Of a DNA stretch of 5,320 nucleotides, positions 1,634-2,090 are shown in pieces (the first letter of the stretch is position 1; the number at the start of each line of letters is the position of its first letter). The notes under the pieces are model-generated. The model did no database searches. It worked only from the letters and a program-made list of their open reading frames with translations, and had not been told where the DNA came from. The position numbers and the translations under genes were made by a program. Origin of the DNA: a virus (Duplodnaviria; Heunggongvirae; Uroviricota; Caudoviricetes); IMG/VR virus record IMGVR_UViG_2690316345_000006, positions 1-5,320 of that record. One strand, written 5' to 3'.

Positions 1634-1662
1634 TTTGCTGTAAAGCGAGAGTTAAGTAGAAT
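1634..1662 (+). promoter_or_regulatory. Candidate sigma70 promoter for hok mRNA
   Basis: TTTGCT (1634-1639), 17-nt spacer, TAGAAT (1657-1662); the predicted start near 1669 precedes GCTTGAGGCTGTCTGCCTC, which resembles the 5' end of plasmid R1 hok mRNA as I recall it. Confidence 0.45.
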
Positions 1663-1724
1663 TGCTGCGGGTGCTTGAGGCTGTCTGCCTCGGGCATGCC
1701 GCCGTAAGGCAGACAGAGAAAAGC

Positions 1725-1790
1725 CCCAGTTAACATTACGCGTCCGGCAAGACGCTTAACATTAATCTGAGGCCATATCTATGCGACACA
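1725..1790 (-). ncRNA. sok: Sok-like antisense RNA (approximate bounds)
   Basis: Minus-strand promoter TTGACC (plus 1818-1823), 17-nt spacer, CTAATC (plus 1795-1800), at the position of the R1 sok promoter; the transcript would be antisense to the mok SD and start; an imperfect hairpin (1740-1755) and a U-rich tract lie downstream on the minus strand. Confidence 0.5.
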
Positions 1791-1840
1791 TAGAGATTAG
1801 CCTCTTACGGACCGAAAGGTCAAGGAGAAGCAGGCTATGA
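1781..1840 (+). CDS. mok: mok-like leader ORF (19 aa) coupled to hok
   Basis: ATG 1781 with GAGG 8 nt upstream; reads MRHIEISLLRTERSRRSRL; its TGA (1838-1840) overlaps the hok ATG (1837-1839) as ATGA. Confidence 0.5.
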   Translation: MRHIEISLLRTERSRRSRL

Positions 1841-1992
1841 AGCAGCAAAAGGCGATGTTAATCGCTCTGATCGTCATCTGTTTAACCGTCATAGTGACGG
1901 CACTGGTAACGAGGAAAGACCTCTGCGAGGTACGAATCCGAACCGGGCAGACGGAGGTCGCTGTCTTCGTAGACTACGAATCTAGAGAGTAA
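1837..1992 (+). CDS. hok: Hok-family type I toxin (51 aa), HokD/RelF-like
   Basis: Reads MKQQKAMLIALIVICLTVIVTALVTRKDLCEVRIRTGQTEVAVFVDYESRE, near-identical to E. coli HokD as I recall it; AAGGAG 9 nt upstream; not in the track (under length cut-off). Confidence 0.9.
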   Translation: MKQQKAMLIALIVICLTVIVTALVTRKDLCEVRIRTGQTEVAVFVDYESRE

Positions 1993-2001
1993 GAGTGACC
2001 A

Positions 2002-2023
2002 GGCGGGAGAGTAATCTCCCGCC
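2002..2023 (+). other. Perfect 9-bp hairpin in the hok 3' UTR (candidate fold-back-inhibition element)
   Basis: GGCGGGAGA-GTAA-TCTCCCGCC at 2002-2023. Confidence 0.5.
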
Positions 2024-2062
2024 ACCTCTGATGTGTCAGGCATCCTCAATGCACCCACACTT

Positions 2063-2090
2063 AACCCGCTTCGGCGGGTTTTTGTTTTTA
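2063..2090 (+). terminator. Rho-independent terminator of hok mRNA
   Basis: AACCCGC-TTCG-GCGGGTT followed by TTTGTTTTT. Confidence 0.75.

Follow-up and report, generated by a model that had tools for sequence, protein, structure and literature searches.

Is the hok gene at positions 1634 to 2090 of a prophage-derived stretch of DNA the toxin gene of a complete hok/mok/sok type I toxin-antitoxin module, or is it a toxin gene without antisense control of its own, comparable to hokD of Escherichia coli K-12? The stretch, referred to below as the window, comprises the first 5,320 nucleotides (nt) of the IMG/VR record IMGVR_UViG_2690316345_000006, a virus of the Caudoviricetes. An initial annotation, made from the letters alone, had proposed a complete locus, and each of the elements that it listed was found where it had been placed (Table 1). 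We aligned the locus with R1 hok/sok and K-12 hokD, as that annotation had suggested, and obtained a match to the R1-type architecture and an alignment over the entire cassette with the hokW/mokW/sokW genes of phage 933W. These data make it very probable that positions 1634 to 2090 hold a complete module of the prophage hokW/sokW lineage, situated in the nin region of a lambdoid prophage. The kind of locus, its lineage and its prophage association have already been published or annotated, and the allele in the window is new only as a sequence variant.

The comparison with known systems can be summarized as follows. (i) The window aligned end to end with hokW/mokW/sokW of 933W/Sp5 (GenBank AF125520; Takada et al. 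2021, PMC8621323), at 91% nucleotide identity across the promoter, leader, open reading frame (ORF) and 3' untranslated region (UTR). High identity over the whole cassette is thus combined with a lambdoid prophage setting, as expected for the hokW/sokW lineage. Both loci have tac, ucb, the mok Shine-Dalgarno (SD) sequence and AUG, the position of the sok promoter, the Sok hairpin, the 3' hairpin and fbi in common. They differ in the mok frame, since mokW is in frame with hokW and yields a 70-amino-acid Mok-Hok, whereas a net -1 indel in the window results in a 19-codon mok that ends at AUGA. Further differences concern the sok -35 element and spacer (TTGACC and 18 nt in the window, TTGCCT and 17 nt in 933W), the sequence of the Sok 5' tail, and the genomic position, as the 933W cassette is located near attR and lacks the terminator sequence found downstream in the window, whose own cassette is placed ahead of Q within the nin region. 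(ii) The hok/mok/sok (parB) locus of plasmid R1 and R1-type IncF plasmids agrees with the window in the arrangement of its elements and in the predicted fold of the full-length mRNA, comprising the 5'-3' closure, a mok start paired to the 3' UTR, the 3' hairpin and the terminator. The R1 locus and the window also share the Rfam family, the GAGG motif of the mok SD, the AAGGAG motif of the hok SD and TACGAA near the hok 3' end. However, their sequences can be aligned in blocks only, the R1 mok has 70 codons in the +1 frame with its stop inside hok, and the R1 locus is plasmid-borne with post-segregational killing as its proven role. At the protein level, R1 Hok and HokW are 44% identical (PMC8621323).

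The hok leader matched the full length of the Rfam model RF01794 in the window (Table 1), and the same model scored 113.5 bits at the 933W hokW locus and 88.9 bits at an R1-type plasmid locus. Although RF01794 is named "sok antitoxin", it matches the hok mRNA leader strand in all three loci. Because the match is on the plus strand, the model describes the hok leader, the complement of which contains Sok, and strand calls derived from RF01794 should be read with its hok-mRNA sense in mind. The promoter that the initial annotation had assigned to hok itself is present with both hexamers; its -10 TAGAAT is nearly invariant in 93 unique family sequences, and we infer promoter function from sequence and conservation. 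The R1-like mRNA 5' end was also recovered, with GGGTGCTTGAGG at position 1669 as the counterpart of R1 GGCGCTTGAGG. The mok leader with an ATGA overlap, likewise part of the earlier description, is present with its own GAGG SD, and its ATG at 1781 aligns with the annotated mokW start; coupling to hok is predicted from this arrangement.

Table 1. Positions of the features of the hok/mok/sok locus within the 5,320-nt window
Feature	Position	Strand	Details
Putative hok mRNA promoter	1634-1662	+	-35 TTTGCT/TTGCTG (1634-1640), -10 TAGAAT (1657-1662)
hok 5' leader	1669-1839	+	Rfam RF01794 "sok", 105.9 bits (gathering score 59), E = 4.3e-24, full model 1-157
Predicted full-length hok mRNA	1669-2086	+	~418 nt; 5' end placed from R1 and the Rfam model start, 3' end at the terminator
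tac	1669-1680	+	GGGUGCUUGAGG; pairs with 2044-2056 in the full-length minimum free energy (MFE) and centroid structures
ucb / anti-SD	1721-1727	+	AAGCCCC; predicted partner of the mok SD (closed form) or of tac (truncated form)
Predicted Sok antisense RNA	1787-1719	-	~69 nt; short 5' tail, long terminator hairpin, U run
mok SD	1769-1772	+	GAGG, 8 nt before the mok AUG; R1 GAGG motif at similar spacing; family-conserved
mok leader ORF	1781-1840	+	19 codons, MRHIEISLLRTERSRRSRL; UGA overlaps the hok AUG as AUGA
Putative sok promoter	1794-1823	-	-35 TTGACC (1823-1818), -10 TAATCT (1799-1794), 18-nt spacer
dcb	1799-1804	+	AGCCUC; predicted partner of GAGGC in the mok SD region (open/truncated form); Rfam consensus helix; family-invariant
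hok SD	1823-1827	+	AGGAG; unchanged across the aligned loci, K-12 hokD and R1 among them
hok ORF	1837-1992	+	51 amino acids; Pfam HOK_GEF PF01848, 81.1 bits (cut-off 22)
Hairpin within hok	1970-1984	+	UAGA-CUACGAA-UCUA; in full-length MFE structure; Tyr47 codon UAC in loop
3'-UTR hairpin	2002-2023	+	perfect 9 bp, GGCGGGAGA-GTAA-TCTCCCGCC; as RNA GGCGGGAGA GUAA UCUCCCGCC
fbi	2044-2056	+	CCUCAAUGCACCC; complementary to the mRNA 5' end, one bulged base
Predicted intrinsic terminator of hok mRNA	2063-2090	+	7-bp GC-rich stem 2063-2080, then T run

At the sequence level, the minus strand carries a putative cis-encoded antisense gene over the mok start, with promoter and terminator and with homology to sokW. 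The ends of the predicted Sok RNA were taken from the annotated sokW of 933W and transferred by alignment. Its predicted fold has a free energy of -29.2 kcal/mol (z = -4.9), and none of the shuffled sequences was equally stable. The initial annotation had described the sok promoter as TTGACC, a 17-nt spacer and CTAATC (1800-1795), and these letters are indeed present; the -35 element stands, and the -10 hexamer is more likely TAATCT, one base further. The latter aligns with the sokW -10 TAACCT, whose mutation with primers YO-421/422 abolished antitoxin activity (Takada et al. 2021, PMC8621323). The shift by one base is probably immaterial to the identification of the promoter.

The predicted structure of the hok mRNA is that of a closed R1-type messenger. 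Names of RNA elements follow Le Rhun et al. 2022 (PMC9841398), and the role of ucb is assigned by analogy with R1. The full-length mRNA has an MFE of -179 kcal/mol (z = -7.3 versus dinucleotide shuffles), and the centroid structure retains the 5'-3' closure. Together with the RF01794 E-value and the stability of the Sok fold, this value is far from what chance would produce. Tac and fbi form 12 pairs, all of which are retained in 93/93 family sequences with only G-U changes; a compensatory change was seen only with respect to R1, where the elements read GGCGCUU/AAGCGCC. In the full-length fold the mok SD is held in a stem with GCCCC at about 1722-1727, and the mok start region (1781-1795) forms a helix with 2026-2043 that is also predicted in R1. 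We had considered this last pairing as ucb/dcb; that assignment was dropped after PMC9841398 in favor of the positions in Table 1. When the 3' end was trimmed in silico to position 2036 or 2026, the leader switched to the Rfam consensus fold, in which tac pairs with AAGCCCC. This predicted shift of the leader to the open form is the sole indication in the window of 3' processing to an active mRNA. The 9-bp hairpin in the 3' UTR reported in the initial annotation is present; its stem is maintained by compensatory changes among family variants, and by analogy with R1 (PMC9841398) it probably corresponds to the stem-loop that protects the processed mRNA at its 3' end. The terminator proposed there is also predicted, as a stem followed by a T run, and family conservation stops just after it.

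The toxin encoded in the window matches HokW of 933W at 49/51 residues and K-12 HokD at 47/51, in line with the earlier description of a near-identity to chromosomal HokD/RelF, and three other IMG/VR loci encode an identical Hok protein. The NCBIfam Hok subfamily model gave 53 bits, a sub-threshold match below its cut-off of 73.

The column entropy of the family alignment shows that conservation begins at the hok -10 and ends just past the terminator, so that the cassette behaves as one discrete module. This module is widespread. At least 80% of positions 1600-2120 was found at 90 to 97% identity in 3,823 of the 5,426 complete E. coli genomes (~70%), with a median of two places and a maximum of ten per genome. 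It was also found in 110 phage records, some of which label it hokW/mokW/sokW, gef or "host killer", as well as in plasmids, P1-like ones among them. In our locus sample (n = 104; 103 IMG/VR loci and the window), an R1-like leader is present in 102 loci, the remaining 2 being of the relE type. Flanks were sufficient in 75 of 120 IMG/VR loci; 58 of these 75 are followed by a Q-like gene in the same orientation and 8 resemble 933W, so that the position in the window is the commonest one. An enrichment of hok in prophages has been reported (bioRxiv 10.1101/2025.08.07.668861).

By homology with R1 hok/sok and hokW/sokW, the locus would work as follows. A weak constitutive promoter would give rise to a stable hok mRNA, which tac-fbi pairing would keep inert by sequestering the mok SD. 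Slow trimming from the 3' end would remove fbi, whereupon the 5' end would refold onto the ucb anti-SD and expose the mok SD and start. The short-lived Sok RNA, perfectly complementary to the mok start region, would bind there, block mok translation and lead to cleavage of the duplex. Hok would be translated only together with mok, in the window presumably by termination-reinitiation at the AUGA. Once the supply of Sok ends, Hok would be made and damage the inner membrane.

What would such a module do for the prophage? The only close relative with experimental data on its role is hokW-sokW, a working type I toxin-antitoxin system in which Sok neutralizes Hok toxicity (Takada et al. 2021, PMC8621323). 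Following mitomycin C treatment of Sp5, sokW disappears and HokW appears in a RecA-dependent manner; deletion of hokW-sokW halves Sp5 release, and the published role is an aid to lysis and phage release (PMC8621323). Plasmid R1 hok/sok mediates post-segregational killing and partial T4 exclusion according to work that PMC8621323 cites. By analogy with these systems, the most likely role of the locus in the window would be to assist lysis and phage release upon induction, to promote prophage retention, or both. Prophage stabilization and abortive infection, both suggested in the initial annotation, are possible roles.

A narrower view is that the cassette is an induction-linked lysis helper and not chiefly an addiction or abortive infection system, with early rightward read-through disturbing the convergent sok promoter. 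Read-through hok RNAs without a proper 5' end would then supply Hok during induction and accelerate lysis and release. The Sp5 data, that is, the loss of sokW and gain of HokW after mitomycin C and the halved phage yield on deletion (PMC8621323), agree with this view, as does the location of hok ahead of a co-oriented Q in most of the informative loci. In addition, the ORFs of the window, hok included, are all on the plus strand, and no predicted terminator separates hok from the ORFs that precede it; given that the cassette points the same way as early rightward transcription, read-through could disturb the sok promoter. However, the 933W/Sp5 cassette sits near attR and not in the nin region, so that the published effect is not attributable to read-through geometry; the read-through idea itself is an inference, and the conservation of the cassette's own promoter and terminator is what would be expected of an autonomous unit. 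We therefore regard this view as possible, though not as the one we would favor.

The preferred reading, a complete and potentially functional module, must also be weighed against the view that the locus is structurally complete yet a functionally silent prophage passenger, in which the frameshifted 19-codon mok may couple poorly to hok. A number of observations speak against a working module. (i) The 19-codon AUGA mok is a minority form, present in 11 of the 104 sampled loci including the window, whereas the majority (about 88) carry an in-frame 70-amino-acid Mok-Hok as in 933W; a 68-amino-acid mok in the +1 frame, as in R1, is found in 3. (ii) Premature mok stops in R1 abolish Hok synthesis (PMC9841398, Table 1). 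(iii) The chromosomal loci hokA/B/C were unable to mediate post-segregational killing and gave no response to rifampicin, according to work cited in bioRxiv 10.1101/2025.08.07.668861. (iv) A generic sigma-70 scan of the window listed neither the hok nor the sok promoter. The hok promoter was missed because its -35 is weak (3/6 consensus matches), and the promoter calls consequently rest on homology and conservation. (v) The sok -10 also has only 3/6 consensus matches, a number that the functional promoters of R1 and sokW do not exceed. (vi) The tac-fbi pairs show conservation but no covariation within the family, whose members are too closely related for covariation to be seen. On the other hand, the short-mok leader of the window recurs unchanged in 10 other independent IMG/VR contigs, which marks it as an established allele, unlike a newly arisen defect. 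The mok stop lies exactly on the hok AUG, so that ribosomes still cross the hok SD and termination-reinitiation coupling is plausible. All three mok frames, including the R1-like +1 frame, occur in the family, suggesting that ribosome transit matters and not the peptide. Finally, judged from sequence and predicted folds, the locus retains its hok ORF, both SDs, tac, fbi, the sok promoter and the terminator, as the initial annotation had held in calling all regulatory parts apparently intact. Taken together, these data make a silent locus unlikely.

The remaining view is that of a plain K-12-like hokD, in which hok forms the tail of an upstream operon and lacks antisense control of its own. K-12 hokD (relF), part of the relBE-hokD operon of the Qin prophage, has an identical SD and a near-identical 3' UTR with the hairpin, fbi and terminator. 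It also has a similar neighborhood, as it is located in a lambdoid prophage upstream of a DUF1367/YdfU-like gene and Q. However, the promoter, tac, ucb, mok and sok are missing from K-12 and the end of relE takes their place, so that the alignment starts only at the hok SD; a search of the K-12 relBE-hokD region with RF01794 gave no match. The window, in turn, has the full leader, and the contrast with relBEF drawn in the initial annotation is borne out. Despite the match of 47/51 residues to HokD and the labeling of every homologous copy in RefSeq as "hokD", this view is highly improbable and refuted at the sequence level by the K-12 alignment and the RF01794 result, and the relE type accounts for only 2 to 3 of about 104 to 120 sampled loci. 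In complete E. coli genomes, "hokD" is the only RefSeq/PGAP annotation of the cassette; thousands of full cassettes thus bear this label with Sok and mok unannotated, which masks their difference from the truncated K-12 hokD. As a separate observation, K-12 hokD (locus L003, about 5000-5120, minus strand) retains the 3'-UTR hairpin, the terminator and an fbi, CCTCAACGCACCC, without a tac partner; this fbi is an orphan left when relBE replaced the leader.

Having weighed these views, we retain that of a complete hokW/sokW-type module, within which sequence variation is concentrated at one site. The hypervariable stretch at 1774-1793 is the only one in an otherwise near-invariant cassette. It takes in the Sok 5' tail, mok codons 2 to 5 and the spacer that precedes the mok AUG; six or more different alleles are common among the related loci (L005-L124). 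Among the only three same-genome copy pairs at hand, the Sok 5' tails were identical in one and different in two. A tentative proposal, which we consider rather doubtful at present, is that the short-mok lineage has a distinct termination-reinitiation coupling and that the variable Sok 5' tail sets specificity and so prevents cross-neutralization among co-resident prophage copies. The mok-frame variants and the variable tail provide a cheap natural series for studying the requirements of coupling and of Sok specificity. Among the complete E. coli genomes searched, the cassette is matched best by strain C325 (96 to 97% identity), and the allele in the window resembles a recombinant in which a C325-like leader has been joined to the hok 3' end of a 933W-like locus. 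An exact search of the genome_contigs collection with a 40-mer taken from the hok 3' end gave no hit.

The hok coding sequence contains a further conserved element. TACGAA near the hok 3' end is invariant in 5/5 aligned loci (the window, C325, 933W, K-12 hokD and R1 hok), and the loop of the hairpin at 1970-1984 resembles the anticodon loop of tRNA-Arg(ACG). The Tyr47 codon is accordingly a candidate site for adenosine-to-inosine editing by TadA, which would change Tyr to Cys; hokC/D/E are reported to be edited at the corresponding cysteine position (bioRxiv 10.1101/2025.08.07.668861).

The surroundings of the cassette identify the window as a piece of a lambdoid prophage, with all ORFs of note on the plus strand. 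Positions 1-126 are an IS1 end on the minus strand, 100% identical to the IS1A/IS1B/IS1X2 ends in thousands of E. coli records, and prophage homology starts at about 126, indicating that IS1 inserted into the early region of the prophage. The IS1 end is followed by small nin-region ORFs, the hok locus, DUF1367, YbcO/DUF1364 and a Q-like DUF1133/antiterminator gene, and further downstream by tRNA-Met/Ile(CAT), tRNA-Arg(TCT), a TerB-family gene and matches to the small RNAs (sRNAs) STnc100 and AgvB. E. coli PEC240 has a matching gene order, with 98% identity over 1390-5320; upstream, the corresponding PEC240 position holds pseudogene fragments and a DUF551 gene, so that the nin region is mosaic there. 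The two ORFs flanking the cassette, of 277 amino acids (546-1379) and 57 amino acids (2215-2388), had no match in Pfam or NCBIfam.

The tRNA gene with a CAT anticodon (4028-4103) was called tRNA-Met by ARAGORN, whereas RefSeq annotates its prophage homologue in C325/PEC240 as tRNA-Ile, presumably of the ileZ-like, lysidine-modified kind. Together with tRNA-Arg(TCT), which comes next at 4204-4280, it makes up the tRNA pair that Stx-type prophages usually carry downstream of Q. STnc100 (145.8 bits; 5050-5242, plus strand) and the anti-GcvB sRNA AgvB (96.5 bits, identical to the consensus; 5243-5304, minus strand) are both full-length Rfam matches. The two genes lie back to back and are preceded by the TerB and DUF3927 genes; a weaker match to AsxR overlaps this region. 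The joint occurrence of Sok, STnc100 and AgvB in Stx-type prophage regions has been described (bioRxiv 10.64898/2026.05.13.724894).

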